Shown: positions 5,376 through 51,359 of the stretch, piece by piece | Layout of the letters: each line of letters starts with the position of its first letter | How positions within the stretch are numbered: position 1 is the first letter of the stretch | Source of the DNA: a virus | Taxonomy: Duplodnaviria > Caudoviricetes | Virus record (IMG/VR): IMGVR_UViG_3300022181_000105 | Span: 1-52,020 of that record | Length of the DNA: 52,020 bases | Direction: 5' to 3' (one strand) | Program-made: the position numbers and the translations under genes | The notes under the pieces: model-generated | Seen by the model: only the letters and a program-made list of their open reading frames with translations | Told to the model about the DNA's origin: nothing | Database searches by the model: none

Positions 5376-6050
5376 ATGGCGAAGAAGGTAACAATGTTCA
5401 AAAACAGCAAGGGAATCCGCGTTCCCTCGGTCACGACGATTTGCGGCCAGCTCGACAAGCCTGGGCTTATGTACTGGGCGCACAAGCTCGGATTGGAGGG
5501 CGTCTCCGATCTGAGGGCGCACCGGGACGCGATAGGTCAGGCCGGGAATCTCGCGCATGAACTGGCGCTTCCGTTCCTCTCCGGGGTCGAGATAGGAGAC
5601 ACGCTCAAGACGCTTCAGAGCGTGTACACCCCGGAGGAGCTGGCTCTCGCCGCCCCCATCATGAACCGCTTCACCGCGTGGGCGAAAGGACACGAGTTCC
5701 AGACCGATTTCGAGGAGGAGTCGTTCATCAGCGAGCGACATCAGTTCGGGGGGCGCATCGACTGGTTCGGGATTATGGACGGCGTTCCCACGCTGCTCGA
5801 TCTGAAGTTCACCAAGGCGCTGTATCCGGAATCCACATACCAGATGTCCGCGTATCTCCATCTGCTGAAGGAACACGGAATAGACGTCCACAGGACGAAG
5901 ATCTTCCGTTTCGGTCGCACCGAGGAGGAAGGCTTCGAGGAACCCGAGCTTCCCGAGGATGTCCTCGAAACGGGGTGGAACGTGTTCCTTCGGCTGCGGG
6001 AGATCTACGACCTCGCGAAGACGCTCCCGAAAACCGGGAAGGCCGCATAG
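5376..6050 (+). CDS. PD-(D/E)XK exonuclease (phage recombination nuclease)
   Basis: VPSVTTI N-terminal motif, FGGRID, LLDLK, YQMSAY. Confidence 0.85.
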   Translation: MAKKVTMFKNSKGIRVPSVTTICGQLDKPGLMYWAHKLGLEGVSDLRAHRDAIGQAGNLAHELALPFLSGVEIGDTLKTLQSVYTPEELALAAPIMNRFTAWAKGHEFQTDFEEESFISERHQFGGRIDWFGIMDGVPTLLDLKFTKALYPESTYQMSAYLHLLKEHGIDVHRTKIFRFGRTEEEGFEEPELPEDVLETGWNVFLRLREIYDLAKTLPKTGKAA

Positions 6051-8254: not shown

Positions 8255-10803
8255 TCCCGACGAAGCTTGAGCTGCACAATTTTGGCCCGATCCAGGACGC
8301 GATGATCGATCTCGACGCGGTGGACCTCGCGGCCATAGTCGGACACAACGGCGCCGGGAAGTCCACGGCGTTCACCATCGCTCCGCTCTGGGCGCTCTTC
8401 GGAGGGACGAAGAACGGATGTTCCCCCGACGATCTGGTTCGCATGGGGGAGCTGGACGCGTCGGTGGAGCTCGAATTCGAGCACCGCGGAGAGAGTTACA
8501 GAGTGCGACGGACCCGCTCGAAGAACGGGCGCGGGAAGTCGTCCCTTGAGCTTCAGAAGCTCGTCTCCGGAGAATGGGAACCCATGTCCGGAGCGACGAT
8601 CAAAGAGACCGAGGAGAAGATTCGCGCCCTTCTCGGTCTGGACGAGGAGACGTTCACCGCCTCGTCGATGATCCTCCAGGGCAAGGCGAACGAATTCACA
8701 GCGAAAGCTCCGGGGCAGCGGAAAGCCATTCTCGCCCAGATTCTCGGGCTCGACGTCTACGACAGATTGCAGGAGGGAGCGAAGGAGCATGCGCGAAACA
8801 TCGCGGACCGGGTGGTCAGAAGCGAAGAAAAGGCTCGGGAGCTTGCAGGGATTTTCGTAGAACGGGAGGAAATCGCGGGCGATCTTGCCAAGGTCGAAAG
8901 GGGCGTTCAAGCGGGATCGGCGTCCGCGTCACGGCTCGAAGGCGACCTGCGCGGAGCGGAGGAAAAACTCGTGAAGCTACGCGAGGCCGAATCCGCTTTG
9001 GCTCAGAAACACGAGGAAGTGGCGCGTCGCCGCAAGCAGCTCAACGATCTTAAATGGGACTTGCGCCAGATGCGGGAGGAGCGGGCGAAGCTGGCCTCGG
9101 TAGCGGACATGAAGGAGCACATCCTCGAAAAGTGCGCCGCCTTCGACCGGGCGGAGAAACAGATGGCGGAAACTCGTCCGCTGAGCGAAGAGCGCGCCCG
9201 CCTTCTCGACGAACTCGGACGGGCTTCCGGGGCGATCCGGCGAGAGGAAGCGGCGCTCGTGAATCTTCAGGCGCAGGTCGACCCGCTGCGAAAGTTTGTC
9301 GACGCGGCGCCCATGTTCGCCTCCGCCGCCTCGCGCGTCGAGTGGCTGAAGAAGGAGCTTGATCGGCTGAACGAGCGGCGGGAAGAGGACCTCGATCTTG
9401 AGCGGAAAATCCGGGAGCTTGAGAAGGATCTCGGAGAGCGGGTGCGCGATCTTGAGCGCAAGCGCTCCCTCATGGAGACGCGGCTCGAATTCCTCCGCGG
9501 GCAGGCCGCGAAGATCGAGCGGTCGGGATGCGTCGCTCCGGAAGCGGTGAAGGTGACGCCGTGCGCCTTCCTTCGCGACGCTCTTCAGGCGGCGAACGAC
9601 CTCCACGGGACGGAGGCGGAGCTTCGAGACCTGAGCGATCCGCGCATCGAGCAGATTGAGTCGGTGTTGTCCGAGGCGAGAAAAGCGAGGGGGGATTTCG
9701 CGGCGCTGTTCAAGGAGCGCTCTACGGCTCTGAAACTGGAAATCGCGGAACTGGAACCGAAAGCGGCCATGCTCCCGCTCGTCGCGGAGAAGCGGGAAAG
9801 GCTCGAATCCGTCCTTGCGGGGATCGTCGACGCCGAATCTCGTCTGTGCGAAATGAGACGGCGGGTCGAAGAGGGCGAGCGGCGACGCAAACAGCTCGAC
9901 GATGTGCTGGAGGCCTCGCGGTCGCTCGAAGAGGCTCTTTCCGACGCGGAAGCGTGGAGGAAACGACGGGACATGATTCCCGCCTACGAGGAGCGCCTGA
10001 AGAACACGGACGAAAAGATCGACGCCCTGGAAGTCGACATCCGCGTGAAAGAATGCGAACTCGTCGCCCTGGAGGAGGAGTTGGTATTCGCCCCCTCGGA
10101 CGAAAGTGAGGCGGCAGCGGCAGCGGTCGCCGGACTTCGGCGGGAACTCGACACGGTTCGGAGGTCGCTCGACGAGCTGCACGCTCGTCGAGGCGGTCTG
10201 AAGGAGCGGCTCGACAGAGCGGAGGAGGCGAAGCGGCAGATCGACGCGATGGAGGAAGAGCGGGCTCCTCTGGTCACGGAACGACACTACTGGTCGAAGC
10301 TCGTGGAGGCATTCGGCCGCAACGGCATTCCGGCGCTCGTCATCGAAAACGCCGTCCCGGAGCTGGAGCGGATAGCGAACGAGATCCTCGGCGAAATGTC
10401 ACAGGGGAGGCACTCCCTCAGATTCGAGACGCAGCGCGAGCTGAAGAGCCGGGCCGGGATGGCGGAGACGCTCGAGATCATCGTTGCCGACTGGATGGGC
10501 ACTCGCCCCTACGAGACCTTCTCCGGAGGGGAGCAGCTCAGGATAGATTTCGCGATCCGCTTCGCGCTCGCGGAACTCCTCGCGCGTCGCGCCGGGAGTC
10601 GGATCGAGTGGCTCGTGATCGACGAGGGGCTCGGCAGCCAAGACAAGGAGCATCGCGAGTTGGTGCTCGAAGCGATACGCAATGTCGCCGGGCGCTTCCG
10701 GAAGGTCCTCGTGATCACGCACGTCGAGGAGGCGCAGGGGGCGTTCCCGCAGCAAATCCGCTTCGAGAGGACCGACGGCGGAGTGAAAATAACGGTGCAG
10801 TAG
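8251..10803 (+). CDS. sbcC: SbcC/Rad50-like SMC ATPase
   Basis: Walker A GHNGAGKST, long coiled coil, signature FSGGE, Walker B LVIDEG, H-loop VITH. Confidence 0.94.
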   Translation: MIPTKLELHNFGPIQDAMIDLDAVDLAAIVGHNGAGKSTAFTIAPLWALFGGTKNGCSPDDLVRMGELDASVELEFEHRGESYRVRRTRSKNGRGKSSLELQKLVSGEWEPMSGATIKETEEKIRALLGLDEETFTASSMILQGKANEFTAKAPGQRKAILAQILGLDVYDRLQEGAKEHARNIADRVVRSEEKARELAGIFVEREEIAGDLAKVERGVQAGSASASRLEGDLRGAEEKLVKLREAESALAQKHEEVARRRKQLNDLKWDLRQMREERAKLASVADMKEHILEKCAAFDRAEKQMAETRPLSEERARLLDELGRASGAIRREEAALVNLQAQVDPLRKFVDAAPMFASAASRVEWLKKELDRLNERREEDLDLERKIRELEKDLGERVRDLERKRSLMETRLEFLRGQAAKIERSGCVAPEAVKVTPCAFLRDALQAANDLHGTEAELRDLSDPRIEQIESVLSEARKARGDFAALFKERSTALKLEIAELEPKAAMLPLVAEKRERLESVLAGIVDAESRLCEMRRRVEEGERRRKQLDDVLEASRSLEEALSDAEAWRKRRDMIPAYEERLKNTDEKIDALEVDIRVKECELVALEEELVFAPSDESEAAAAAVAGLRRELDTVRRSLDELHARRGGLKERLDRAEEAKRQIDAMEEERAPLVTERHYWSKLVEAFGRNGIPALVIENAVPELERIANEILGEMSQGRHSLRFETQRELKSRAGMAETLEIIVADWMGTRPYETFSGGEQLRIDFAIRFALAELLARRAGSRIEWLVIDEGLGSQDKEHRELVLEAIRNVAGRFRKVLVITHVEEAQGAFPQQIRFERTDGGVKITVQ

Positions 10804-13638: not shown

Positions 13639-16600
13639 ATGAAAACGCGTCCAACCGACGGTCCCTACAGACCGGGGAATCAAAACGGCGTCGTCGTGTC
13701 CGACGCCTCGAACGGTCTTACCCTGAACGGCGCAACGGGCAAGAGGTCCGTCGATTATTACGGCGGAAACCTGATCGCGGAATCGGTATCGCCGTGCAAC
13801 GTGCCGCTGCTCGCCGCTTCCTGGGATTTGCTGCGATTGCTGCGGAATCTGGTGAGTCGAGACAGGCGGATGGTAGAAGCCGGCGGTCTCATGCAATCCA
13901 CCGCGGAGCTTGAGGAGGCGGAGGGGTTTTTGGTGGCGCTCGATAGCGAGGATCCGTCATGAGACGCCCCAAGGATCACCTGACGCTCCAGCACATGATG
14001 GCCCGCATAGCCGAAGAAGACGGCATGCCGGAGCTGGCGCGGAGCTTGGATCGCCGCCCCGAGCCGCTGCGGGAGGAGATGCCGTGGTGGGACAGGACGC
14101 CTAAAAAGGGGGTGTGAGCGGGTGCTCTTTGGTATGCAATTCTGGAAATACTTTCCTTGGGAGAACTGGGCAATTTTCAAGCGTTTCCATTACCACAACA
14201 CCGAGGGGCTGAGACGATACGCCCCGAAACCCACTCGGAAGACAATCAAGCCGCAGCGCCTGACGATTGCTCGGAAGTCGTTCGAGCGCAGAAGGAGCGG
14301 GTGCCCATGAAAGCCTATTTGACAACAACGCCCCGGCGAGCTGCTCGCGCAACGCAAAGCCTTGCGGCAAGCGGTACGGCTTAATTGATGAGGAGGGGTC
14401 GGCATGGACAAGATCAAACACACGGGCACGATGAACGCGGTCTGCCCGTGGTGCGGCAGAGAGGTCGCGGATAGCTGGGAGTTATGGCACCCTGAAAGCG
14501 AGTGCGAGTGTAATCAGTGTGGGAGGTTGTTCAAGGCGACGCGGATTGTGACTGTGGAATTCGATACGGAGAAGGTGGAGGCATGAAGGCGAGTTCTGGA
14601 CCGTTCGAGATTGACACCTACGGACACGGACACGGACACAATGTGTTCGAAAACGACAGAAACATTTGGGTCGCCCATTACCCGGATTCTACGGGCGCCT
14701 CCGAAGCAAACGCGCTGCTTTTCACGCGCGCGCGAGACATGCTGCGCCTGCTGCGGGAGGTTGCGCCGACGCTCGGGCACTATCACGGTCCGCTAGGAGG
14801 CTGCACGGCGTGCGACATTGACGCGTTACTTGAAGACTTGAGGGAGGTCGAGGCATGAGCTGGCGTGAAATGTGGGAAGATTTAAGCGAAGTGCTATTTA
14901 TAGCGGTTGTTTTAGGTTTTGGAATGGGACTATGCGGAATCGCTTTTTATCTGCCATTGTCATTCCCATTGAGCTAGTAAGGTGGTTGTTGACATGAGCC
15001 GCAAACATCCCCGCGACAGGCGGGTGAAGATGCTCCGGCTCTGGCTCCGGGGGCTGCGGAAGATGTCGCGGCGGATTGAGGACGCGAAGAAGGTGGCGAA
15101 TAGAACCACAGTACCCATCTTCGTAGACAAAGACCGGCGCGTTATGTTCAGCGAGTTCTCTTGGCTGCGGCATATTGTCGGCGTGCGAAAGGGGACGATA
15201 CTTTGAGCCGGAACAGCACGTGGTACACAATCAGCAGGTGGAGCAGCAGCAACGTCATTGACCGCGATCTTCTCTTCTACCGCACGGCGCGAACCGCGAA
15301 AAAAGCTCGTAGCATCGCCGCAAACAATCCGGGAGCCAAAATACTCATGGAGCGTCACACCCCGTCATCGTTCAAGTGGCTCCATGACATCATTCCCGAC
15401 AACAGTAAAAAAATGAGGCAACTACGGCGCCTCTACCGAAATTTCCGCCGCCGCGAGGCGGACGCGAAGAAGCGTGTCGCGCGCAACCAGCGCAAAGAGC
15501 GAGTGGCGCGCTGGGTGGCGATAAAACAGTCTTTTGACCGTGCGTACGGGGATGTTGCGCGAGCAAGCAGGAAAGTACAACGCAAGCTCTGGGCGTTCTG
15601 GAATTCGCTGGACACGGGGACGGGAGGAGAAAAGTTATGAACACGCACCTTTGCGACACCTGCAAGTACAGCGAAGAGGAGTGCAAGCCGGAGGATATGC
15701 AGCTTGACGATCTGGACAACGTGGTTGAGTGCTTCGGGTACGAGGAGGACGGGGCATGTTCAGGCTGATGCGGATGCCGGACGGTAACGCTTTGCTGATC
15801 CGCGAGCGGGACATGGAGCCTGCCGGGATCATTCACGAGTCGCACGTCGAGGCCGTCTCCCAGGCGCTGGGGATCGGGGTGCCGGTCATCGTAGGAATCG
15901 GAGACGGAAAGTCGACCACGTTTCAGTGTAGCCACGAGGTCGATTCTATCGAAGCAGATTCGGAGCTTGTGGCGGAGGTGACGGAATGACGCTGATTCGT
16001 GCGACCTTTGAAATTGGAGGCGAAGGTGAGTTGTGCCATTTCTGTGTATATGGGATGTATGGAGGTTTGGATGAAAGTATTTGTTCTTGCGTTCTGTTTC
16101 GGCAAAAACTTAAAAGAGATTCTGAAAGGCGCAAGGTTCGCTGTCCGCAGTGTCGTGCTTCGGAGGTGACGGGATGAACCACGCGAAGGAGATTTGGATA
16201 CCCGATGAATCCGGCATGTATATTCTGGCCTGCAATCCGAACGACAATCATGGGTACGTGGCTGTGGAGATTCGCGGATGGGGGAGCCTGTCTAAGCTTG
16301 GGAAAGAAGAGGCTGAAAGAGTTCTAAGGGACAGGGCCATCCGTATCGCCGCCCTGTGGAATACTGCGGAAGACTTGTGGCTGACGACGGAGGAGATTAC
16401 GCGTGGTGCTATTTCCAAGATGTTCTGGCTTGCAGGGAATCGCATACCGCAGGTAGACATGATCGACATGGAGTTCATGGTTCCTATCCGGGACGACGAG
16501 ATCGAGTTCCATCCGTGGAAGGGAGAGCCAATAAAGGTGAGCGTGCGCGGTGGGGAGCACACGAAACATGTGCGGGACGAGATTATGAGGCGGTGGAACA

Positions 16601-18206
16601 AGTGCGAGGTGGCGGAATGAGCAAATGGATTTTTTACGACAGATGCGCAAATGAGGGGCGGATTTTCGATTCGATGGAAAAGGCGATGGAGCACGCGGAA
16701 TTGTTTATCCAGCGGTACAGCGAGGGTGGCGAAGGGTACCCTGACAGCGGAGACATTCTAATAGCCAAGGTTACACATGTCAATACTTTCCACCCCTCGG
16801 ACCGGGCGAAGGATCACCCATGCATTCAACATCCGGAAAGGACCGCGCTTTGTCACGTGTGCGACGAGCATCCAGAGTGTCCACAAACAGACGCATGGGA
16901 GCATTCCCCGTTCGACGAGATCGGCGAGATGAAAATGGATGAGGTGACGGAATAATGGGGGGTTTTCCTGATGTCTTTGGCGCGATGATCCTGATCTGTG
17001 TTGTGGCTTTTATTGCCGGAACTCAGATTCTTCTGCTGGTGTTCAAGATGTTCGGTGTTCTGACGATATCGTGGGGGTGTGTGTTTGCAGTGATCCCTAT
17101 TTCGATCATTGTGATCATTTTCCTGTTGGGATTGAATAGCGTCTTCGGATTTTGGGAATAGGAGGTGGCGTGATGAGGCGGAAAATAAAAGCAACCCCCT
17201 GGGACGAGTTGCATCCGGACCACCCGCGTCCCGGATTAGCAGTCTTCGACGCGCCAGCGTTAGGAGGCGGAAACAAGTATTTTGCATGCGGCGGCGGAGA
17301 GGTCGAAGAACTGGAGGAGACGGCGAGGCGCCTCGCCGCCCTCTGGAACGCGGCGGAGGATATAGGATCGACAACGAATGAGATAGAGGACGGGGTAATT
17401 CAATTTGCTTTCGAGCTTGGAGAGCGCCACGCCGAAGTAATCAACGCCGCGAAAGAGCGCATCGAAAAGCTCGAAGCGGAGAAGGCGGAGGCGTGCGAGC
17501 TGATTCACGCACTCCTCACGACTGTCCCAAGAGGTAGTTTTTTTGCTCCACTGATTTTGCGGACAGAAACCTTTATCGAAGGGACTATTGAGAAAGCGAG
17601 GGGCGAAAGTGTTGAGCAAGAAAAAGTGTGAAATATGTGGACAGCGACCGGCGACGGTGCCGGACAGAGACCGACCGGGTCGCCCGGTGAGCCGGATATG
17701 TTCGGAGTGCCACAGGTCCCGGCTGGCGGGAGATATGAAAATTGTCATGGCTGCCGCTGCAAAGCAAGCGAGGACGCTAGGAATAGCGTTGGGTATGCTG
17801 CTTGACGAAAAGCAGAAAGCGAGGAGAGAGGAATGATCTGGTTCTTTCTCTCCGTGCTATTCGCTTCCAACGCCATGCTGTGGTGGCGTCTCCTATACCT
17901 TGAGAGCGTCGCCGCGAAGCTGGAATTCGAGCAGATGTGGAGGCCGGGGAAATGACCGAGAAGATCGAACCCGAATGGCAAAAGGAAATTCCGCTCCGCT
18001 GCAAGCGCTGCGACGGCTGCCGCGACATCTCGCCGCTGGCGTACAACGCTTTCCATCTGGAAGAAAAGGTTCGAAAGCTCGAAGAGCGCAACTCATTTCT
18101 CGAAGCGCAGTGCCGCGCCGCGATGGAGCGTGGATCGGATTCCTTCAGGGCGCAGATGAAGGAGCTGCTCGGAGACAACGAACCGAACCGGAGGCGCTGC
18201 GGGTGA
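13639..18206 (+). other. Run of small overlapping hypothetical genes (nin-like region), e.g. 13639-13962, 14404-14586, 14583-14858, 15986-16177, 16174-16620, 16955-17161, 17173-17631
   Basis: Chained ATGA/GTGA start-stop overlaps with GGAGG RBSs; several CxxC mini Zn-fingers and one membrane peptide. Confidence 0.7.
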
Positions 18207-18622: not shown

Positions 18623-19028
18623 AAACGCAAGGGTGTTAATGGGAAGGGCTTTGATAGCGGCGTATAAGGACAGGTGGATTCCGCGAAAGAGAGAAGTTGA
18701 CAAGATTATCGAAGAAATGGTGATGGGCGGGAAGTGGCTGAAAGAGGATATGGTGCAGGGTGGCGACGTCATTCCCCCGCAAGAAGTCTTGCTACACCTC
18801 AAGGAGAATAATAAAAATTACATCGCGCTGTTGTCCAACATAGAAAAAATGGAGAGGATTATTGAATCTCTCACAGACGAACAGGTTTTCATCCTCGAAG
18901 AGCACTTTTGGAGGGGGATACCTTGGTATGAGGTCGCGGATGTTATCTCAGTCAGCAGAACAACCTTTTTCCGAAAAAAGTACGATATCGAGGAGTATGT
19001 TGGGGCGCACTGGAAAGAGGGGGAATGA
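18600..19028 (+). CDS. ArpU/RinA-like late transcription regulator (sigma-70 region 4-like HTH)
   Basis: LTDEQVFILEEHFWRGIPWYEVADVISVSRTTFFR; last early gene, followed by a terminator. Confidence 0.75.
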   Translation: MTVCKALRNARVLMGRALIAAYKDRWIPRKREVDKIIEEMVMGGKWLKEDMVQGGDVIPPQEVLLHLKENNKNYIALLSNIEKMERIIESLTDEQVFILEEHFWRGIPWYEVADVISVSRTTFFRKKYDIEEYVGAHWKEGE

Positions 19029-19043
19029 TCCCCCTCTTTTTTT
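19014..19043 (+). terminator. Rho-independent terminator ending the early operon
   Basis: AAAGAGGGGGA-ATGA-TCCCCCTCTTT followed by T tract. Confidence 0.8.
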
Positions 19044-19110
19044 GTGCCCAAAAACCCCTCAACTTTTGGCAAACTTGGTACTTTAGACCGATGTACGCCA
19101 GCAGATTTTA

Positions 19111-19119
19111 TGGTAGTAT
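19111..19119 (+). promoter_or_regulatory. Candidate extended -10 promoter for the accessory island
   Basis: TGGTAGTAT (TGn + TAGTAT) in AT-rich spacer ahead of RBS GGAGGAGGGG. Confidence 0.4.
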
Positions 19120-19184
19120 ATAGATAGAAAAGGAAATAAGATTCTGAAAGCGCAGTCAATGAAAGATCGGAGGAGGGGATTTGA

Positions 19185-20210
19185 ATGGCAACCACGGTCA
19201 CAATTAAAGAGCGTAAAACGGGGATAGTCGTTGAAACGCAGGAGTTCGAAGAGGGGAATGCGTACTATTGGTTTATACACAAGTACCCAGGGTATAAGCA
19301 ACGGAGCGTGGTCGCGGAAATCACAACCACATATCCGGGGCGTCCGGATTATATCCGCACGGAGGAATATCCCCTCACGTGTATCGCGAGTGATCTTTAC
19401 GACGCTGGGAAAGCGGCAGCTGAGGACGAGTACAACAATGCAAACGCGCTGATCAAGGGCAAGCGAGGCGCGGCGGAAATGCGCAAGCCGCTCGAGGAGC
19501 GGAAAATGAAGCGCCTGAGCGCCCTCAGGAGGGGCTACGACAAGCTCAAGGGCGAGCTTTGGTTGTCAAAAGGGTGGAGCGACGATGGGTCTAGACAGAA
19601 TTTCATCGACAAATGGAGGGGGCACAAATCTTCTCGCAGGCATACGTGGGGCATCAAACAGGGGCATGCCCTTGCGGAGAGGGCTGGCCAAAATTTCGAC
19701 GAGCACGGATCGTCGAGCGGCGACTACCTGAGCACCGGCGTGGTCGATTACGTCTCCCCATGGGATGGCTCAGCCGCCGCACCATATTGTGACATGGGGG
19801 GAGAGGGGCTAGCTCTCATACGGATAACCCGCACGAGAGTCTACGCGAAGTCGTCGAAGTGGTTTCCAGCGCGAGCCTTTACACTCTTCCTCGTCGGGAA
19901 AAATGAGGCAGGAACTTATTTCGCGCACCCTGTCGCAAAAACATGTGAGACGGTTGCGGATGCCGTCCAGTGGATTTGGGGCGGGCGGGCAAGGGACATC
20001 ATTGCCAGGCAGGGAGACATCGCGTTGATAGGCGGCAATGGCGGCCCGAAGCTTCCGAATGACGGATTGCCTCGGGGACACGTGATCGACGAGGCGGCAG
20101 GCATAGTACGCCACTCCACCCACCCGGACATTCCTCTTCCGGGGAAGGGACAGAGAATCATCGTCGGAAGGAGAGCCGCCGTCTATGCCTCCGACGCCAC
20201 GCGGGACTAA
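19185..20210 (+). CDS. Hypothetical accessory protein with C-terminal RQGD/His motif region
   Basis: 341-aa ORF, strong RBS, followed by hairpin 20217-20245. Confidence 0.8.
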   Translation: MATTVTIKERKTGIVVETQEFEEGNAYYWFIHKYPGYKQRSVVAEITTTYPGRPDYIRTEEYPLTCIASDLYDAGKAAAEDEYNNANALIKGKRGAAEMRKPLEERKMKRLSALRRGYDKLKGELWLSKGWSDDGSRQNFIDKWRGHKSSRRHTWGIKQGHALAERAGQNFDEHGSSSGDYLSTGVVDYVSPWDGSAAAPYCDMGGEGLALIRITRTRVYAKSSKWFPARAFTLFLVGKNEAGTYFAHPVAKTCETVADAVQWIWGGRARDIIARQGDIALIGGNGGPKLPNDGLPRGHVIDEAAGIVRHSTHPDIPLPGKGQRIIVGRRAAVYASDATRD

Positions 20211-20287
20211 TAAAAACGCCGCCTTCGTTGCGAGCGAGGGCGGCGCATTTTCCACCCGGCGCGAACCGGGAAGAAGGGAGCATTGCA

Positions 20288-20497
20288 ATGACATCTTATC
20301 ACGGGTTGAGCGGAATTTATAGGCGCGGAAAGGTGGTTTTTGTAAGGTTTTTCGGGAACACGAGGATTCGACCCGACCAGGCGAAGCGCGCATTCCCGAC
20401 CGAAGAGCAGGCCCAGGATTTCTACGCGTGGGCGACGGAGCGGGCGGACAGTGAAAATTTGTCACTCGGAGGATTTTTGACCGGAGGCGGCGCGTAG
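20288..20497 (+). CDS. Small hypothetical accessory protein
   Basis: RBS AAGGGAG; followed by hairpin GGGGCG-ACAG-CGCCCC-TTTATTT. Confidence 0.6.
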   Translation: MTSYHGLSGIYRRGKVVFVRFFGNTRIRPDQAKRAFPTEEQAQDFYAWATERADSENLSLGGFLTGGGA

Positions 20498-20538
20498 GGG
20501 CGACAGCGCCCCTTTATTTCAACAAAGGAGGAATTGAC

Positions 20539-21003
20539 ATGGAACACAAAAACATCGATCTGTTTTTCTCGTTTTTGCGTGACACACTCTTGCACCCCGA
20601 GTCTCTGGATTTCAAGCCCACGAGAGAGGCATGGGTAGAAGACCTGGAGCATGACGCCGCAAGAAACGGCGGTTGTTGCTTCGAGGTTCCGTCTTCAGCG
20701 ACAAAGGACTACGCCCCAGCACTCTACTACTTCCGCAGGGAGTTTTTCATTGATTCTGACGGTGACTGGAACTACCGTATTATTCACGGCGAAACAGAGA
20801 GGCACGTCGCCGTCTCCGTAGACAGAACCATCGCCCCCGCGTTCTGGGCGAAGGTCGACTCCGAATCAGAGGGTGGGAGCATCGTTGCGGAGTTCCTCGC
20901 AACCGGCGGATCGTCGTCTTGTGAAATCTCCGTCGCAGAAATCGCCATGAGATACGCAAAAAGCTTTTCCGAGTGGGAGGATGGCGCGGTGGAGGTTGGA
21001 TAG
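20539..21003 (+). CDS. Acidic hypothetical accessory protein
   Basis: RBS AAGGAGGA; followed by hairpin 21016-21045. Confidence 0.75.
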   Translation: MEHKNIDLFFSFLRDTLLHPESLDFKPTREAWVEDLEHDAARNGGCCFEVPSSATKDYAPALYYFRREFFIDSDGDWNYRIIHGETERHVAVSVDRTIAPAFWAKVDSESEGGSIVAEFLATGGSSSCEISVAEIAMRYAKSFSEWEDGAVEVG

Positions 21004-21128
21004 GGAAATAAAAACTCCGCCTCTCCTTTTCACGGGAGAGGCGGAAATCAGAGGTAGTATTTCTCGTGTTGCGCCCTTACGGGTATCAGAGGATAAAAGA
21101 ACAATAGCACGTCGGAGGAGGGGTGTCA

Positions 21129-22139
21129 ATGGGCGATTTGAAAAATATCGAACTTTCTCTTCACGCGGCATGTCCCGCAGCGTGGCGCGAAGCGGAGGGG
21201 ATGCGAGCCAAGAAGGGGAGAGCGCTGCCACATTGGAGCAAGTGGTGTTACCTCCCGTTGGCAGGGTGGATCGCGATCGTCTCCAGGGGCTGCGACATGT
21301 CGCAGGTTTCCATGGAGCACACGCAGGCGGCAGCGCTATATGCGGCAATCGGATCATGGCGTATCGGACGCGGGATATACCGTTTCGACGAAACCTTGTT
21401 TCAGGAGCTTATCTCCACACCGATGGAAGGGAACATTCCTTGCGACGTGATCTTTCGTCTACCCGAGTGGTGCGTCTATCTCGAGACTGAGCCGCTCGGG
21501 TTCCCTGGGGTATTCGTCCACCTGGAGGAGGACGCGAACAGCGGGGAGAGGGAGCTGCGATTTCTTTTCCACGAGGTCGACGGGGACCTTATCCCCGCCG
21601 TCGTTCATCTGGGAGACTATTCGCTCGCCGAGGGCGTGCGTCGCTCCGTGGAGATGGTCAAGCTCAACATGTCGAAACAGGGATTGTCCTATTCGTCCGA
21701 GCGCATGGCGTTGGACGCTGCGGGAATCATGAATAAGGTGGGAAGCGTTATGCCTCTCGTGCTCTACATCTGCTCCGCGAACTCGGAGGTCAGGCGGCGC
21801 GAAAATGACGCGCAGCCTACGCGCAGAAAACCAAAGGGCAAGGCTGCAAAATTCGCCGTCTCTCCCACAACATGGGAGGTGGGGTACAGGATCGGCGCCG
21901 CCATCCGCGCAGGGCGATCCAAGGAAGAGCAAGGGGAATCGTCTGAGTCGCAGTATCCGGGGGTGGGAATACCCAAGCGTCCGCACGTGCGAAGGGCGCA
22001 CTGGCACGGGTACTGGACGGGGCCGCGCGACGGGAAGCGTTTGTTCTCGTTGAAATGGCTACCGCCCATTCCCGTAAACATCGACACGGACGAAGACGGT
22101 CCGATGGTCATACATCCAGTAGAGGAGGAGCAGTTATGA
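21129..22139 (+). CDS. AcrVA2/FinQ-family protein (putative anti-defence factor)
   Basis: Motifs SWRIGRGIYRFDE, RLPEWCVYLE and KRPHVRRAHWHGYWTG...KWLPP match my recollection of AcrVA2 (WRNTLGIYQLDE, LPDWCVYVD, RPHIRRGHWHGYW). Confidence 0.8.
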   Translation: MGDLKNIELSLHAACPAAWREAEGMRAKKGRALPHWSKWCYLPLAGWIAIVSRGCDMSQVSMEHTQAAALYAAIGSWRIGRGIYRFDETLFQELISTPMEGNIPCDVIFRLPEWCVYLETEPLGFPGVFVHLEEDANSGERELRFLFHEVDGDLIPAVVHLGDYSLAEGVRRSVEMVKLNMSKQGLSYSSERMALDAAGIMNKVGSVMPLVLYICSANSEVRRRENDAQPTRRKPKGKAAKFAVSPTTWEVGYRIGAAIRAGRSKEEQGESSESQYPGVGIPKRPHVRRAHWHGYWTGPRDGKRLFSLKWLPPIPVNIDTDEDGPMVIHPVEEEQL

Positions 22140-22564
22140 AAAAATACACAGTCAGAGCGCAGGACAAGACGGCGGAGACGGTAGAAACTTTCCCGGGGTT
22201 CGCCCCGACACACGCGGCGGAGGAGCTGTTGGATGCTGCGGCGGAATGGGTGCGGCAGGGAGAAATTGACGCGCTCCCGAGGCTGACGGAGCAGGAGAAA
22301 ATAGCCATTGTCGGCGTAGTCAATTCCTGGTACATCGAACCGCTCTGGACAATCTTGCCGGTGACGCTCGCCATGGAGATCCGCGACTACCTCGCCCCCG
22401 GCGAAGAGGGATTTTTCCTCGGGTGGACCGACGAGGCGAAGAAGGAGTTCGTGGAGAAACTATCGAAGCTGACTCCTCCGGAGGCGCTGGCGGTTGTGCT
22501 CTGGGGCAAGCGATTCTGGGAATCCGAGGAGCGGGACGTGTTCAAGTATTGCGCGGACGCGTGA
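22136..22564 (+). CDS. Hypothetical protein coupled to the AcrVA2-like gene
   Basis: ATGA overlap with upstream stop; RBS GAGGAGGAG. Confidence 0.75.
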   Translation: MKKYTVRAQDKTAETVETFPGFAPTHAAEELLDAAAEWVRQGEIDALPRLTEQEKIAIVGVVNSWYIEPLWTILPVTLAMEIRDYLAPGEEGFFLGWTDEAKKEFVEKLSKLTPPEALAVVLWGKRFWESEERDVFKYCADA

Positions 22565-22642
22565 AGGTTGGGAATGAATTCCACATCGGAATCGTTTATT
22601 ATATTAGGGTCGACGATCGGCCCTGGACAAGGGGCGAAGAGA

Positions 22643-23035
22643 ATGTATGTGTCTAGATACAGCAACAAGAAGATTACCAACGATCTGTATGTGCCTTTAA
22701 GAATTTCAATCGGCGCTCCTAGGTGGCGACTGGGATACAAGATCGTCGGAGCGGTAAAAGAGCTGATGCCTTTCGGTCTGCTCGACCTCGAAAGGGCGGA
22801 ATATGAAGAGAGATACCGCGCTCAACTTGAGAAAATTGGAGTAGGTGCGATATCGAAAAGGCTGGAATCCCTCAGGGACGGGGACAAGAATGTTGTGCTC
22901 CTGTGCTACGAGGATATTCGGAAGCCTGGCGAATGGTGCCATAGGACGCTCTTTTCTCTTTGGTGGAAAGAGAAAACTGGCGAGGGCGTCGGGGAGCTGG
23001 AGATGTCGGAGGCAAAACAGGGGGTTTTGTTCTAA
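22643..23035 (+). CDS. DUF488-family protein
   Basis: YEERYRAQL...VVLLCYE...WCHR motif. Confidence 0.75.
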   Translation: MYVSRYSNKKITNDLYVPLRISIGAPRWRLGYKIVGAVKELMPFGLLDLERAEYEERYRAQLEKIGVGAISKRLESLRDGDKNVVLLCYEDIRKPGEWCHRTLFSLWWKEKTGEGVGELEMSEAKQGVLF

Positions 23036-23050
23036 GGAAACCCGAGCGAT

Positions 23051-23076
23051 GAGGGGCCGTTGGCCCCTCTTTTTTT
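23051..23076 (+). terminator. Rho-independent terminator
   Basis: GAGGGGCC-GTT-GGCCCCTC followed by T7. Confidence 0.75.
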
Positions 23077-23113
23077 ATGCCGTTTGTCACCCTAAAAAAG
23101 GTGGGGATTGTAG

Positions 23114-24568
23114 ATGTTTCAGGGAACGATCCCGAGCAATGTTCAAATGATGCTTGGAGAGATAGTTGGCAGTTGGAACGCCAGCGATATTTACGTGGGA
23201 TGCTCTGGTAATTTTACCGTCGAGCGCGTGTTGCATAACCACGCGAAGGCGAGGTTGCACGGAAACGACGTGACGGCGTACTCGTGTCTTATAGGCGATT
23301 ACCTTGCGGGGAATGAATTGGGCGCGAGGTTTAACCCAAAGTACGACGGCCCGATGTCCTTTGTCGAGAAGTACATAACCGACGACGCTTCCGTAATCGC
23401 GGTAACGTTAATTCTCTCCAAGCTCGCGGATGCGCTGAAGTCAAAGAAAAGGAACGCGTATTACGAAAGACTGATCCAAGCGTATAAGGATCAGTGGGAA
23501 ACCATCTTCGCCTCGCAGTATAACTTGGTGCTTGCGTTGCCAAAGATGCTGACGAGCTTCTGCCGGGGCGACGTTTGCGAATGGGTGAAGGGGCTCGACA
23601 AGAGTCAGGGGTTTATCTGTCACCCCCCCTTTTACAAGGGTGGTTACGAAAAAATGTTCGCGGCGATAGAGGACGTAATCGCGTGGGCTCCACCAGAGTA
23701 CGAAATGATCGACCAGGAAAAAATTCATGCGCTTTTCGAGGAGGCGATGGGTTTCAGGCATTTTCTATTCGTAATAAACAAAGAAATGCCAGAACTCAAA
23801 AAAAACCTCATAGGATTAGCACAGACGACCAACAGGGGGACGCCGTTATATGTCTATGCGAACCACGACCGGTCGAGGATTGTCATGCCGTCGCAGAAAG
23901 CCACAACGCCAGCAATAGCGAGGTTAGGGCAAAATGACGACGTTGGAGAAACAATCTCCTTGGTAAAGCTGCAATCGGCAGAATTCCAAGGCTTGCGGTC
24001 TCAATATCTAAACCCGCACATCAAACCGGCGAGCGAGTCTTTGGCACTGGGGGTTGTGGTAGATAAAAAACTTGTGGGAGCCTTCGCCGTATCCGTAGCC
24101 CCAACAATGGGAAATTTCGATAAACACGTAAGCACGCCGACCGTCTACCTCTTGAGCGATTTTCCCGTCGCCCCATCCAAGTACAAGAGGCTTGCAAAGC
24201 TTGTGCTCTACGCGGCGCTGAGCAAAGAGTCGAAACTGATAATGGAGATGCTTTCGAACAGGAGAGCAAGAACGCTCATTACGACAGCGTTTTCAAAGAA
24301 GCCCGTGTCAATGAAGTACCGCGGGCTTTTTGATCTCGTCTCAAAAAAGGAGCTTGACGGTGTGGATGAGAATGAAACGGACATGTCGAAAATCTACTAC
24401 GGGTCAGGGTTCCAGCTGAACTACGCGGCCCCCCTGGGTGCATGGACGCTCCAAGAGGGACTGGCGCTCTGGAAAAAGAAGTGCTCGCAGGTTGAGCAAA
24501 AAGAGGAGGTGTGTGAGGTTGGACGTCCACGTGATGGAGATAGACCCGCGGGAGCTCCGATTACTTGA
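23114..24568 (+). CDS. Putative amino-methyltransferase-like domain fused to a GNAT/Mom-like domain (DNA modification candidate)
   Basis: Motif I-like DIYVGCSGNF, motif IV-like ICHPPFY; C-terminal VVDKKLVGAFAV...VYLLSDF...RLAKLVL...SMKYRG reads as GNAT-like. Confidence 0.6.
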   Translation: MFQGTIPSNVQMMLGEIVGSWNASDIYVGCSGNFTVERVLHNHAKARLHGNDVTAYSCLIGDYLAGNELGARFNPKYDGPMSFVEKYITDDASVIAVTLILSKLADALKSKKRNAYYERLIQAYKDQWETIFASQYNLVLALPKMLTSFCRGDVCEWVKGLDKSQGFICHPPFYKGGYEKMFAAIEDVIAWAPPEYEMIDQEKIHALFEEAMGFRHFLFVINKEMPELKKNLIGLAQTTNRGTPLYVYANHDRSRIVMPSQKATTPAIARLGQNDDVGETISLVKLQSAEFQGLRSQYLNPHIKPASESLALGVVVDKKLVGAFAVSVAPTMGNFDKHVSTPTVYLLSDFPVAPSKYKRLAKLVLYAALSKESKLIMEMLSNRRARTLITTAFSKKPVSMKYRGLFDLVSKKELDGVDENETDMSKIYYGSGFQLNYAAPLGAWTLQEGLALWKKKCSQVEQKEEVCEVGRPRDGDRPAGAPIT

Positions 24569-25926: not shown

Positions 25927-27286
25927 GTTCTGGTTCTTCTGCCAGTACTCGCACTTCGGCAAGTGGCGTCTCGCTCCCCATCTGGAACTCCTCTGCTCCG
26001 AACTCGAAGAGGTCGAGGCCGGGCGACTTGATCGGTTGATTCTGACTGTCCCTCCGCGACATGGCAAGTCTATGTGCGTCACGGAGACCTTTCCGGCCTG
26101 GTATCTGGGCCGCAATCCCGAGAAGCGCGTCATCGAGGCGTCGTACAGCGACGATCTCGCCCGGACCTTCGGCGACAAGTGCCGCCGGAAGATCGAAACC
26201 TTTGGCCCGGAACTCTGGGGGCTGGAGATCGACCGTCGGCGCGCGGACAAGTCCGACTGGGGGATCAAGGATCACAACGGCGGAATGGTCTCGGCGGGGA
26301 TCGGCGGAGGAATCACGGGCAAAGGGGCCGACCTGCTGATAATCGACGACCCGGTAAAGAACAGACAGGAAGCCGACTCGCAGACCTACCGCGACCGCGT
26401 CTGGTCGGAGTGGCAATCCACCCTTTCCACGCGGCTGCATCCGATGGCCGCGGTCGTCGTCGTCCTGACCCGATGGCACGAGGACGACCTTGCCGGAAGG
26501 CTGATCAAAGCGGAGCCGAACAGGTGGAAGCTGCTGAACCTCCCGGCTATCGCCGAGGAGAACGACCCGCTCGGACGTCCGATAGGCGCGGCGCTCTGGC
26601 CGGAGAGGTACGACGAGGCCGAGCTTGCACGGAAAAAGATTACGTCTGGATCGCGCGACTGGGAGGCGTTATATCAAGGGAGGCCGAGTCCGACGAAGGG
26701 ATCCATCCTTCTCCGGGGGTGGTGGAGGGAATACCGCTTGCCTCCCGAGACGATGGTGAAAGGTATGGATCAGGTGATTCTGTCGTTCGACTGCGCCTTC
26801 AAGGACAAGGACACATCCGACTACGTCGTCGGTCAGGTGTGGTGCCGAAAGGGGCCGGACGCCTATCTGCTCGACCAGGTGCGCGGCCGGATGGACTTTC
26901 CCTCTACGCAGCGAGCGTTGAAGGCTCTGTCGGCCAAGTGGCCGATGGCGCGGGCGAAGCTCGTGGAGGATAAGGCGAACGGCACGGCGATCATAGCGAG
27001 CCTTCGCAAGGAGACGTCCGGCCTCATCCCAATCGAGCCGGACGGCGGCAAGGTAGTCCGGGCGAACGCCGTGACCCCGTTCATCGAGGCGGGGAACGTC
27101 CATCTGCCCGAACCTCGCTTCGCTCCGTGGATCGGCGACTTCATCGAGGAGTGCGCCGCGTTCCCGAACGGAGCGCACGACGACCAGGTGGACGCTATGA
27201 CGCAGGCACTCTCCCATCTGCTGGGTAGGTGCAGAGGCGGAAAACCCGTAGCAGGCGGCGCCAGACAGGCGCACCTGCTTTTTTAA
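25817..27286 (+). CDS. terL: Terminase large subunit
   Basis: Walker A PPRHGKS, Walker B LIIDDP, LTRWHEDD, nuclease SFD...EDKANG...HDDQVDA; RBS GGAGGTGA inside terS. Confidence 0.95.
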   Translation: MTRRSSGSSKTPRRSASSRNSTRERLQDTWKALARRRFWFFCQYSHFGKWRLAPHLELLCSELEEVEAGRLDRLILTVPPRHGKSMCVTETFPAWYLGRNPEKRVIEASYSDDLARTFGDKCRRKIETFGPELWGLEIDRRRADKSDWGIKDHNGGMVSAGIGGGITGKGADLLIIDDPVKNRQEADSQTYRDRVWSEWQSTLSTRLHPMAAVVVVLTRWHEDDLAGRLIKAEPNRWKLLNLPAIAEENDPLGRPIGAALWPERYDEAELARKKITSGSRDWEALYQGRPSPTKGSILLRGWWREYRLPPETMVKGMDQVILSFDCAFKDKDTSDYVVGQVWCRKGPDAYLLDQVRGRMDFPSTQRALKALSAKWPMARAKLVEDKANGTAIIASLRKETSGLIPIEPDGGKVVRANAVTPFIEAGNVHLPEPRFAPWIGDFIEECAAFPNGAHDDQVDAMTQALSHLLGRCRGGKPVAGGARQAHLLF

Positions 27287-27307: not shown

Positions 27308-28531
27308 ATGACAAATGTGGACGTGACGAAGACCTACGGCGTCGGATACTCAGACGTCCTGATGCAGCTTCTGTTCTCGCTCTCGCAGCCGGTACAGAAC
27401 CCGGAGCAGATGCTTCCGGAATACCACGAAATGGCGGAGATGGACGAGACCGTCGGGACCGGGCTGGAATTTCTGTGCTATGCGGTGGTCTCGAAGATCC
27501 AGCCGTTCGATCACCCCGATTCCCGCGTCAAGGACCTGGTGCGCCTTTGCGGAGAACGCATCTCGGGCACGCTGGAGGAGTCTCGCAGGGCGCTGCTTTC
27601 CAGTGCGCTAACGTACGGTTTCGGCGTCGAAGAGTTCACGCTCGGAGTGAGCAACTCCCAGTGGTTCTTGTCTTCACTGCAACTGTTCGACGCGCTGACC
27701 GTGAGATTCCTTTTCGAGAAGGCCGCGGACAACTCTCTGCGAATCGCGACGATACGGCAGACCGCCGCGGGCAAGGAGATCGATATTCCCGCCTCGAAGT
27801 GCCTCGTATTCCGCCACAACGCCGGGACGAATCCTTATGGACGGTCCCGCCTCAAACGATGCTGGCGCTGGTACTCCTTCAAGCGCGCGATTCCGAAGTT
27901 CTGGGCTATCGCTCTCGAACGCTTCGGAATGCCGATGTTGGTGGGGAAAAGTTCCGATCCGAAGGCGTTGGAGGAGATTCTGAAGGACGCATACAGTCAA
28001 GCGTACGCGTCGATCTATACAGACGACAGCATCGAGGCGGTCGGACAAGGCATGCCAGCCGGGCTCAGCGGAGCGTACGAGAGCGCCGCCGAGTTCTGCA
28101 ACAAGATGATTTACAGAAGTCTTTTCCTTCCGTCTCTGCTGGAAAGCGGCGACGGCGGAGGCTCCTACGCTCTGGGGAAAATCCATTGGCAAATGTTCAA
28201 CGATGCGTGCATCTGGCTGGCGAAGGAGCTGGCGGAGGCCGAGATAGAGCGGTTATGGCGCCCGATCATCGAGTGGAACTTGGGCCCGATGGAGAGTTAC
28301 GGCACGCTGAACGTCTTTAACTCTCAGACTCCCGAGGAGCAGGAAATCATGTCAAGGATTTTCCTGAACGGGGTCAACGCCGGGATGCTGTTCCCGGAGG
28401 AGGGCGACGCCGACTGGATGCGGGAAAGGCTGGGCTTTCCCCTCAGTCCGGAGGGGGGTGAAGCCGACGGATGGAGAGCAAAATTATCTCGGCTGGAAGG
28501 GACAATAGCCGACGGGCAAAAATCAGGATAG
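27308..28531 (+). CDS. Portal protein (Mu gp29/DUF935-like)
   Basis: NPYGRSRL...ERFGMP...GGSYALGKIH; follows terL. Confidence 0.88.
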   Translation: MTNVDVTKTYGVGYSDVLMQLLFSLSQPVQNPEQMLPEYHEMAEMDETVGTGLEFLCYAVVSKIQPFDHPDSRVKDLVRLCGERISGTLEESRRALLSSALTYGFGVEEFTLGVSNSQWFLSSLQLFDALTVRFLFEKAADNSLRIATIRQTAAGKEIDIPASKCLVFRHNAGTNPYGRSRLKRCWRWYSFKRAIPKFWAIALERFGMPMLVGKSSDPKALEEILKDAYSQAYASIYTDDSIEAVGQGMPAGLSGAYESAAEFCNKMIYRSLFLPSLLESGDGGGSYALGKIHWQMFNDACIWLAKELAEAEIERLWRPIIEWNLGPMESYGTLNVFNSQTPEEQEIMSRIFLNGVNAGMLFPEEGDADWMRERLGFPLSPEGGEADGWRAKLSRLEGTIADGQKSG

Positions 28532-49266: not shown

Positions 49267-49570
49267 CGGGAAAATCGTCATGGAGGAGGCTGACTACCGC
49301 CTCCTGATCACCGAGATTCAGACTCTCAAGGCCGAGGCCGCAGCGCTTCGGGCGGTCGTCGAGAAGGAGCGCGCCGGGCAGAACGAATACATGGTCCGCG
49401 TCTCGCTGGAACGCCAGGCACACGAGGCGTTGTTCGAGGCTCAGAAAGACCGCATCGACCGGTTGACGCGGCAGAAGTGGTATCCGGGGATCATCGCCGG
49501 GGTCGGCGGTACATGGAAGGGGGAGGTCCAGGGTGTTGTCGGCATCGGCTGGAAAATCGACCTGTGGTGA
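49151..49570 (+). CDS. Secreted coiled-coil protein with C-terminal amphipathic beta hairpin (o-spanin-like)
   Basis: RBS GAGGAGG, signal peptide ending PQATA; start embedded in previous gene; ends GIIAGVGG...VVGIGWKIDLW. Confidence 0.6.
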   Translation: MRQAQKRSATKWISMSWLILATLCFVALPQATAEIRRADGKIVMEEADYRLLITEIQTLKAEAAALRAVVEKERAGQNEYMVRVSLERQAHEALFEAQKDRIDRLTRQKWYPGIIAGVGGTWKGEVQGVVGIGWKIDLW

Positions 49571-50036: not shown

Positions 50037-51143
50037 TTATAGCAAATCGACGGCGCGCTTCTTCACGTCCGGGGCGAGGTGTGCGTACCGGAGCGTCATT
50101 TTCAAATCGGCGTGCCCGAGCAGCTCCCGGACGGTGTTCAAATCGACTCCGGCCATCACGAGCCGGGAGGCGAAGTCATGGCGCATGTCGTGCCAGCGGA
50201 AATTCTCTATCCCCGCACGCTTCAGGATCGTCTCCCAGGCGGTGCGGTAGTTTGGGATTGGCTCTCCGGTGCGGGTATGGGGGAAGACGTGCTTGCTCAG
50301 ACGAGGGAGTGCGGAGAGTGTTTCATGGACCACGCGGTTCATCGGGACTTTCTGTTCCTTCTCCGCCTTCGCGGACTCGGAACGGAGGGTGATGGTGCCG
50401 GTGGAGAAATCTATGTCGGTCCATCGCAGATCGAAAAGCGCCCCCTGCCGGATGCCGGTGTGCAGTGAGACGATGACGGCCCCCCTGTGCAGGGGGTGCG
50501 CCTCTTCGAGGGCGGCCATCAGGCGGGCGCGTTCCTCCGGGGAGAGGAAGCGCACTCTGTCGGGGGAATCCGTCTCGCGGAGGCGCTCGAGAAGGTCGAT
50601 GGGGTTGCCTGGGATCATGCCTCGCCTTTTCCCCCAGTTCAGCACGGCCCGCAGAGCGGTGATGCGGCGGTTGATCGTCGCCGCCTTGATCCCCTTCTTT
50701 TTCTGAGCAAGCCGCCAGTTTTCCACCTTCCCGAGAGAGATGTCTTCGATATTATCTTTCCATATAAAGGAAAAGAAGTTGCGCAGAGTTTGAAGCGTAA
50801 ACGATGCGCTTTTACGATGCGCCGTCACCCACGGCGCGTATTCCTTCTCGACGAGATCGCCGAGAGTGAAAACCTCGTCCTTCCGAGGTTCCTCTCCTTT
50901 CGAGACCATCGCCAGGTATTCCCGGGCAAGCTCGCGGGCTTCGGCTACCTTCAGCACGTCGGCGTCGCCGAGTTTTTTCGTGTTCCGCCGACCGTTCTTT
51001 CGTGTATAATCGACGTACCATGTCTTCTTCCCGGAGGGTTCGACCCGCAGGAGGAGTTTGGTGAAAACGGAGTCGCGGACATCGTAGCGCTTCTCCCTGG
51101 GGTCGAACTTCGGCACCGTGGTGTTGGTGAGTTTTTCGGACAT
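50037..51143 (-). CDS. int: Tyrosine integrase with N-terminal arm-binding domain
   Basis: YDVRDS...LLLRVEPSGKKTW arm domain; catalytic TGIR, HDMRH, LLGH, RYAH. Confidence 0.95.
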   Translation of the reverse strand: MSEKLTNTTVPKFDPREKRYDVRDSVFTKLLLRVEPSGKKTWYVDYTRKNGRRNTKKLGDADVLKVAEARELAREYLAMVSKGEEPRKDEVFTLGDLVEKEYAPWVTAHRKSASFTLQTLRNFFSFIWKDNIEDISLGKVENWRLAQKKKGIKAATINRRITALRAVLNWGKRRGMIPGNPIDLLERLRETDSPDRVRFLSPEERARLMAALEEAHPLHRGAVIVSLHTGIRQGALFDLRWTDIDFSTGTITLRSESAKAEKEQKVPMNRVVHETLSALPRLSKHVFPHTRTGEPIPNYRTAWETILKRAGIENFRWHDMRHDFASRLVMAGVDLNTVRELLGHADLKMTLRYAHLAPDVKKRAVDLL

Positions 51144-51180
51144 GCGGTCACTTCCCGTACTCGATATGTACTCAACGGCG

Positions 51181-51209
51181 ATTATACAACGATAGCAAAG
51201 GGTAAACAA
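51181..51209 (-). promoter_or_regulatory. Sigma-70-type promoter for int
   Basis: Minus strand TTGTTT-N17-TATAAT, ~40 nt upstream of the int ATG. Confidence 0.7.
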
Positions 51210-51301
51210 CGCGGAGAGAGAAAAAATGATACACGCTTGCAAACACCGGATTCCAAGAACGTGGACTTTTACAATGTCATACGGTTGTATATGCCGGGAC
51301 A

Positions 51302-51348
51302 CCATGGTAAGGATGGGGTCTCCGGTTCAAGTCCGGAAGTCGGCTCCA
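51302..51348 (+). repeat. attR core: 3' half of tRNA-Thr(GGT)
   Basis: CCATGGTAAGGATGGGGTCTCCGGTTCAAGTCCGGAAGTCGGCTCCA contains GGT anticodon loop, T arm (GGTTCAAGTCC) and CCA end; no 5' acceptor strand or D arm upstream. Confidence 0.88.
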
Positions 51349-51359
51349 GCGAGTGAACG

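Follow-up and report, generated by a model that had tools for sequence, protein, structure and literature searches.

The closest described counterparts of the protein considered here are AcrVA2 and FinQ. According to the part of the discoverers' preprint consulted (10.1101/2022.11.29.518452), AcrVA2 binds to LSKT at the N-terminus of Cas12a as a nascent protein, and the Cas12a mRNA is lost as a consequence; the substitutions H286A, R288A, and H291A abolish this loss, and W79A and D89A weaken it. The same source reports that AcrVA2 acts on divergent Cas12a proteins, that its acidic site for the Cas12a 620–636 peptide is dispensable in vivo, and that FinQ lowers the mRNA of F transfer genes, i.e., both studied members of the family reduce specific mRNAs. 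In addition, excerpts of PMC13728456, which refers to Marino et al. 2026, state that the ribosome is bound by the C-terminal part of AcrVA2 and that the cutting is done by a cellular enzyme, and those of a conference report (PMC12908700) describe the engineered use of AcrVA2 on tagged Cas9 and Cas12f.

The preprint (10.1101/2022.11.29.518452) counts about 1,800 AcrVA2 orthologues, which occur "typically in the absence of Cas12a", and it already contains the idea that AcrVA2 homologues have other targets; the part consulted names no further target and does not mention Cas3. The question raised by the discoverers is what these ∼1,800 homologues, mostly without Cas12a, silence. No natural second target of the AcrVA2/FinQ family was found in the literature searched, and the preprint supplements or the 2026 Nature version may include the clade considered here or tests of further targets. 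Regarding Synergistota, the phylum of the host described below, no anti-CRISPR work was found in the literature either.

The gene under study, whose product is referred to as P0001, lies in a window, namely the whole stretch of DNA that was analysed, of 52,020 nucleotides (IMG/VR record IMGVR_UViG_3300022181_000105). The window contains nearly a whole prophage, with repressor, recombination, terminase, portal, capsid, tail, lysin, and integrase genes. The initial annotation had placed the gene in a temperate phage, and these genes together with the attachment core (Table 1) bear this out. The last 671 bases, past the attachment core, are host DNA and are identical at 671 of 671 positions to a Synergistaceae MAG (G001), which carries a 97%-identical copy of P0001 in its own prophage. 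The window is a prophage in the tRNA-Thr of a Synergistaceae species.

From its sequence, its modeled fold, and its functional residues, P0001 is assigned as a full-length protein of the AcrVA2/FinQ family. This similarity had been proposed from three motifs, which do occur in the order given (Table 1), and the profile search against AcrVA2 suggested as a check is significant: a profile of 120 sequences matches residues 10–318 of the AcrVA2 chain (7CI1) with E 9.4e-36. When the single sequence is used against the PDB, AcrVA2 (7CI1/7CI2) is the sole match (E 2.7e-18), and tblastn finds annotated FinQ (E 1e-19) in an alignment that spans 82% of the query at 26.6% identity. An AlphaFold2 run on the single sequence was unusable (pLDDT 38), and the model built on the family alignment was taken instead (mean pLDDT 87.1, pTM 0.86). 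With this model, a fold search reached E ≤ 0.001 only for AcrVA2 chains, which were 3 of the 500 matches listed, the best having E 1.2e-14 and TM 0.59/0.63. P0001 has 926 relatives at E ≤ 0.001; the precomputed PF26125 assignment is present on 120/120 of the relatives listed, including the 98%-identical P0002, and the match of P0001 to phrog_6160 has E 2.4e-59. The copies of Pfam and NCBIfam searched gave no match for P0001, the Pfam copy being without the PF26125 model. In the literature searched, neither a tested function nor a named target was found for the P0001 clade of PF26125/phrog_6160.

Sequence alignments, in which the AcrVA2 chain numbering is offset by one, place W79, D89, H286, R288, and H291 of AcrVA2 at W77, D87, H286, R288, and H291 of P0001. 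Among the aligned relatives W77 is conserved in 120/120, and each of the other four residues in 119/120. The site for the Cas12a 620–636 peptide (AcrVA2 E98/D129/D195) is not kept, with E98 replaced by S96, the D129 loop absent, and D195 unclear. Comparison with two near-identical copies gives 32 synonymous and 9–10 non-synonymous codon changes, and on this count the gene looks alive. In a quick tree the closest relatives (68–98% identical) form one supported clade that includes P0001, and P0001 lies in a large clade far from both AcrVA2 and FinQ. P0001 adds one member to a large published family and no new system; its novelty is its context. Some family members are longer, about 435–450 aa (L056 649–1971 in G069, L057 1438–2742 in G009) or, in one ORF (L002 5023–7032), 669 aa, and may carry inserted or fused domains.

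The gene is located between the late regulator and a block with DAM-like/GNAT, ParB, and terminase genes, in an accessory island of six same-strand genes that extends from 19185 to a terminator-like hairpin. In the G001 copy two extra ORFs (∼112 and ∼67 aa) precede the 154-aa gene, and the island is thus variable. These two ORFs (L015 6834–7391) have no family and are candidate anti-CRISPR genes by position. The gene that follows P0001 is translationally coupled to it; with only 6 relatives found (66–88% identical), it is a candidate clade-restricted partner or regulator. Directly before the terminase (22568–25394), a DUF488-N3-like gene, a DAM-like/GNAT fusion (PF22555 + PF22559), and a ParB-like gene likely form a block for DNA modification that could, in addition, protect the phage against nucleases of the host, and the early region (5376–10803) has a phage-borne recombination/repair set composed of a Cas4-like nuclease, an SbcD-like phosphoesterase, and an SbcC-like ATPase. 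Elsewhere, in the Rheinheimera prophage of G271, a small HTH gene (L018 9388–9570) lies two genes past the AcrVA2-like gene, as in acr-aca operons. A search of Pfam, PHROGs, PDB, and Atlas with 60 small ORFs of the window, the two additional ORFs of G001, and 9 genes that neighbour two relatives found no known Acr family; it points to no particular alternative inhibitor near P0001, although one may be present.

The intergenic stretch 5′ of the gene, with its hairpin and TCAGAGG pair, is conserved in a 72%-identical relative (L016, 920–1030) and is a possible operator or RNA element. The two TCAGAGG copies are ∼39 nt apart, and the same stretch holds a palindrome-like word, CCCTTACGGG. A minus-strand promoter-like site (21129–21101), considered as the source of an antisense RNA, was discarded: L016 does not conserve the second hexamer of this site, and the sites of the scan are no commoner than in shuffles. 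As for expression, RNA contigs of four metatranscriptomes cover ∼19141–23046, and DNA runs contain the entire 19000–24000 query. The RNA runs were chosen for holding 19000–24000 and their contigs give neither level nor strand, so the coverage is only a weak hint that the island, with the P0001 gene, is expressed in the lysogen; the absence of RNA contigs over the late genes (23296–33900) in runs chosen in this way is no proof of it.

Table 1. Coordinates of the features discussed, in positions of the 52,020-nucleotide window
Feature	Position	Strand	Details
I-E spacer 27 protospacer	5775..5807	-	perfect, AAC flank
I-E spacer 43 protospacer	8944..8976	-	perfect, non-consensus AGC flank
I-E spacer 7 protospacer	14436..14468	+	one mismatch (position 24), AAC flank
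I-E spacer 19 protospacer	16671..16703	-	perfect, AAC flank
Island first gene, 341 aa	19185..20210	+	no family found
Island gene, 69 aa	20288..20497	+	no family found
Island gene, 154 aa	20539..21003	+	no family found; 64% identical in the G001 copy
Intergenic stretch 5′ of P0001	21005..21100	.	12-bp hairpin (21015-21046) and two TCAGAGG copies
Ribosome-binding site GGAGGAGG	21114..21121	+	7 nt 5′ of the P0001 ATG; strong; from sequence
AcrVA2/FinQ-family gene, P0001	21129..22139	+	single open frame, 336 aa, ATG start
W77...D87 motif WRIGRGIYRFD	21357..21389, aa 77-87	+	corresponds to AcrVA2 W79...D89 in alignments
LPEWCVY motif	21459..21479, aa 111-117	+	from the sequence of P0001
HxRxxH motif RPHVRRAHWHGYW (H286, R288, H291)	21978..22016, aa 284-296	+	corresponds to AcrVA2 H286/R288/H291 in alignments
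Gene, 142 aa	22136..22564	+	overlaps the P0001 stop codon by 4 nt; no family
Gene, 155 aa	22568..23035	+	weak DUF488-N3a match below cut-off; phrog_2450
Terminator-like hairpin with T run	23051..23069	+	in two runs the RNA contigs stop at 23046
I-MYXAN spacer 9 protospacer, in terminase gene	26342..26379	+	perfect over 38 nt, ATA flank
I-E spacer 67 protospacer	27602..27634	-	mismatches 15 and 24, AAC flank
I-E spacer 29 protospacer	49353..49385	+	perfect, non-consensus GGC flank
Tyrosine integrase	50037..51305	-	integrase of the prophage
I-E spacer 73 protospacer	50218..50250	-	mismatches 12 and 32, AAC flank
Attachment core, 3′ end of tRNA-Thr(GGT)	51302..51349	+	48-bp repeat bounding the G001 prophage

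The initial annotation had held that the target, which it did not name, would be a host defence protein that need not be Cas12a and may be new, and had pointed to an inventory of host CRISPR and defence systems. The CRISPR part of this inventory gave two type I systems, I-E and I-MYXAN, and no Cas12a: the models TIGR04330 and PF18516, positive in G236, G241, and G242, found none in G001, and none was found in G002, which is the closest of the relatives that have a host genome. The view that the target need not be Cas12a is consistent with this result, and the idea of other targets, as noted above, had already been published by the discoverers. Both G001 operons consist of full-length ORFs, with cas3, cas8e, cas11, cas7, cas5, cas6, cas1, and cas2 for I-E (the cas8e matches being below cut-off) and cas6, cas3, cas8a1, cas7, and cas5 for the I-MYXAN interference operon. 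The I-MYXAN locus (G001:C30 2168–10102, L045) has no cas1 alongside, and the sole cas1 found in the MAG is that of I-E. The I-E array comprises 76 repeats and 74 spacers, the I-MYXAN array 22 repeats and 21 spacers. An IS21 element (G001:C36 23504–26020, L043) interrupts the I-E array; counted from the leader, it lies between spacers 31 and 32, and it possibly silences the 43 older spacers, so that spacers 57, 67, and 73 may not be expressed.

With at most 5 mismatches, 15 of the 74 I-E spacers have a match, 9 in the window and 11 in the G001 prophage. As controls, 0 of 222 shuffled spacers matched, and no spacer matched the 100 kb read outside the prophage. Five of the 11 spacers against G001's own prophage have an AAC flank, including spacer 57, which is perfect, and spacer 4, which has one mismatch at the last position and lies on the leader side of the IS21. 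AAC is the consensus flank in these data (70/74 33-mers start with C, and AA precedes the C in 8/15), and we infer that it works as the PAM. Non-consensus flanks occur at several perfect targets (AGC for spacer 5, GGC for spacer 29), and spacer 7 has AAC in the window and TAC in G001, a pattern that fits escape by mutation rather than full protection. Of the 21 I-MYXAN spacers one, spacer 9, targets the phage, the array direction being taken from the cas genes; its ATA flank is a close second-best PAM for a Myxan-type system in the part of PMC11096372 consulted. Arrays with the same repeat in other metagenome assemblies yield 9 of 334 distinct spacers that match the window, six of them common to G001. 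In addition, RNA run X13 contains a repeat-spacer-repeat contig of I-E spacer 7, and the two DNA runs with the whole query also contain long, difference-free stretches of the I-E cas operon. Since G001 was assembled from a population, the array and the prophage may belong to different cells. The host cas operon has sparse coverage by RNA contigs (depth 2–4), which fall on the 5′ part of cas3 and become few beyond it; the published AcrVA2 pattern is similar, but this coverage was left out as evidence, since contig gaps prove nothing.

The association with type I systems extends in part to other carriers of the family. The isolate Marinomonas shanghaiensis (G272, L019) has a complete I-E operon, and 6 of its 102 spacers match the contig of its own homologue, one of them perfectly with AAG, compared with 0/102 for shuffles. 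The isolate Rheinheimera soli (G271) has one match among 71 spacers, with two mismatches and a weak AAA flank, and no self-targets were found in the further I-E carriers G069 (0/8 spacers), G277 (0/10), and G115 (0/44, against only 6 kb). A family gene thus lies on an element targeted by a type I system of the same genome in G001 and G272 on paper, weakly in G271, and not in G069, G115, or G277 as far as found, an observation that is not tied to P0001 itself. According to the part of PMC7708048 consulted, self-targeting occurs in one fifth of CRISPR-carrying bacteria, with a consensus PAM in 37% of the I-E cases, and three positives among six carriers are for this reason suggestive, not decisive.

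Across Synergistota, 7 of 268 genomes have a family member (with either query) and 29 have I-E cas7, which is present in 5/7 carriers vs 24/261 other genomes (Fisher p 1.9e-4, size-stratified p 0.001, the size strata being counted by hand). These genomes share traits by kinship, and the five I-E carriers represent perhaps two or three lineages. When only intact copies are counted, i.e., without the broken or partial ones of G112 and G114, I-E is found in 3/5 carriers (p 0.01 by Fisher, 0.05 size-stratified). Among the carriers outside the Synergistota sample I-E cas7 is present in 5 of 19, and G002 is not one of them: this 72%-identical relative has an I-MYXAN cas8 and two cas3 genes and no I-E, the I-MYXAN type being common to it and G001. 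The order of G272 has 3 carriers in 401 genomes, one of them marginal, which is too few to replicate the I-E enrichment. Overall, Cas3 is over cut-off in 13/25 carrier genomes and Cas12a in 1/25. One Synergistota genome, G242, has a Cas12a with an LSKT N-terminus (L066) and, on short contigs, three near-identical full-length family genes (L053, L059, L062) plus two fragments, which may represent a second anti-Cas12a lineage, independent of the first and located on a multicopy element.

Regarding the peptide that such a protein could read, a literal LSKT near the N-terminus is absent from 13 host Cas proteins. The host I-E Cas3 has W14-G-K-S17, similar to L12-S-K-T15 of Cas12a in being hydrophobic-small-K-S/T and nearly equal in its distance from the start. 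In its strict form this word occurs within the first 45 residues of 7/20 Cas3 proteins vs 2/115 other host ORFs, and its lysine is invariant in 15/15 aligned Cas3 N-termini, which were picked from 21 available for having the word; the host I-MYXAN Cas3 has LAKL, outside the pattern. The word was spotted post hoc and is a general Cas3 trait, and hence it provides a testable site and no support for binding. When P0001 was modeled in complex with residues 1–45 of the host I-E Cas3, the score was 0.01 and the fold of the partner uncertain, a result that counts neither for nor against binding.

Taken with the published work, the conserved residues suggest, by analogy, that P0001 quite probably keeps the AcrVA2 mechanism, i.e., mRNA decay triggered by a nascent peptide. 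P0001 would ride on ribosomes through its C-terminal HxRxxH region, as reported for the C-terminal part of AcrVA2, its divergent N-terminal and middle parts would catch the N-terminus of one nascent host protein, and a host nuclease would then clear the corresponding mRNA. Such a blocker of biogenesis would suit lysogeny, in which a self-targeting system would not be rebuilt, rather than the first minutes of an infection. The host inventory makes type I CRISPR-Cas, on circumstantial grounds, the leading candidate target; that the target is a type I cas gene is a tentative proposal drawn from context, and Cas3, the best guess among the type I genes on the same basis, is a doubtful one. The wider statement, that the main AcrVA2/FinQ clade consists of anti-type-I proteins which read the N-terminal W/L-G/A-K word of Cas3 and destroy its mRNA, with prophages thereby living under self-targeting I-E and I-MYXAN arrays, we regard as unlikely. 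The strongest points against a type I target are the population assembly, the escape-like changes of the flanks, and the other island genes as the inhibitor; four or more flanking genes without a family could be the real type I inhibitors.

An alternative is that P0001 applies the same AcrVA2-like mechanism to a target other than a cas gene, such as a restriction enzyme, a toxin or abortive-infection gene, or a gene that belongs to a competing mobile element, with the type I self-targeting handled by another island gene or produced by an assembly effect; this joint reading approaches an even chance. FinQ is itself a family member with a non-CRISPR target, 552 of the 609 matching plasmids are conjugative, 12/25 carriers are without a Cas3 over the cut-off and 14 of the 19 outside the Synergistota sample without I-E cas7, and the island has four to six genes of no known family and varies between copies. 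Set against a non-cas target, the dominant visible pressure in the host of this phage is type I CRISPR (15/74 spacers), the Synergistota carriers are enriched for I-E, and no positive pointer singles out any specific alternative.

It is improbable that P0001 has the family fold and another job, such as binding to ribosomes in general or regulating genes of the phage itself during lysogeny, without a specific foreign target. In favour of this, only one family member has been studied mechanistically, TM values are ∼0.6, and the P0001 clade is large and distant from AcrVA2 and FinQ. Against it, the five residues required in AcrVA2 hardly vary among the 120 aligned relatives, specific mRNAs are reduced by both members studied, and a variable accessory island is typical of counter-defence loci. 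Cas12a is likely not the target, and a genuine anti-Cas12a function of P0001, from or for other Cas12a-bearing hosts, is very improbable. Cas12a does occur in 3/268 Synergistota genomes, with an LSKT N-terminus in both proteins that have an intact start, G242 combines it with three full-length family copies, and AcrVA2 is active on divergent Cas12a. On the other hand, G001 and G002 gave no Cas12a, which a single carrier among the 25 has, and its overlap with the family in Synergistota is not beyond chance (p 0.077); the quick tree, whose long branches make it unsure, sets the G242 copies apart from both P0001 and the Moraxella orthologue, and the acidic residues for the Cas12a 620–636 peptide are not kept, though dispensable in vivo.

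With regard to the discoverers' question, the P0001 case provides a short list of candidate targets: the host species has been identified, the sequences of its cas genes are available, and both type I systems have spacers against the phage. Moreover, the Marinomonas isolate, from another phylum, has the same self-targeting pattern. Should the target prove to be a type I subunit, mRNA decay coupled to translation would be a general means of countering CRISPR, and a new peptide tag for knocking down specific proteins would come with it; if the Cas3 reading is true, Cas3 would be the first class 1 protein among the natural targets of nascent-peptide-triggered mRNA decay and provide the second programmable peptide tag. 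If no type I subunit is the target, P0001 is one more ordinary family member.

Collectively, P0001 resembles AcrVA2 from the Moraxella bovoculi prophage (7CI1/7CI2) in its length, its fold, the equivalents of W79, D89, H286, R288, and H291, and its place in an accessory locus of a temperate phage. It differs in that the structural alignment gives ∼18–19% identity with a divergent N-terminal part, that the acidic residues binding Cas12a 620–636 are not kept, that neither acrVA1 nor another known Acr family was found beside it, and that its host has two type I systems and no Cas12a found. The Cas12a 620–636 peptide site differs in the AcrVA2 orthologue of Moraxella Mcat5 as well. With FinQ from IncI1/F-like plasmids P0001 shares the WR and HxRxxHWH motifs, whereas FinQ adjoins conjugation genes on plasmids and the P0001 gene belongs to a prophage; the 42 window proteins scanned include no transfer proteins, a setting other than that of FinQ. 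Within PF26125/phrog_6160, P0001 is a direct member. The CasPR proteins, as described in the part of 10.64898/2026.02.23.707548 consulted, are unrelated to P0001 and stop the transcription of cas genes by binding to their DNA with CapR/AP2 domains; they offer a precedent for a single family of biogenesis-blocking anti-CRISPRs, active in lysogeny, that has diverged to silence unrelated CRISPR types, including type I-B.
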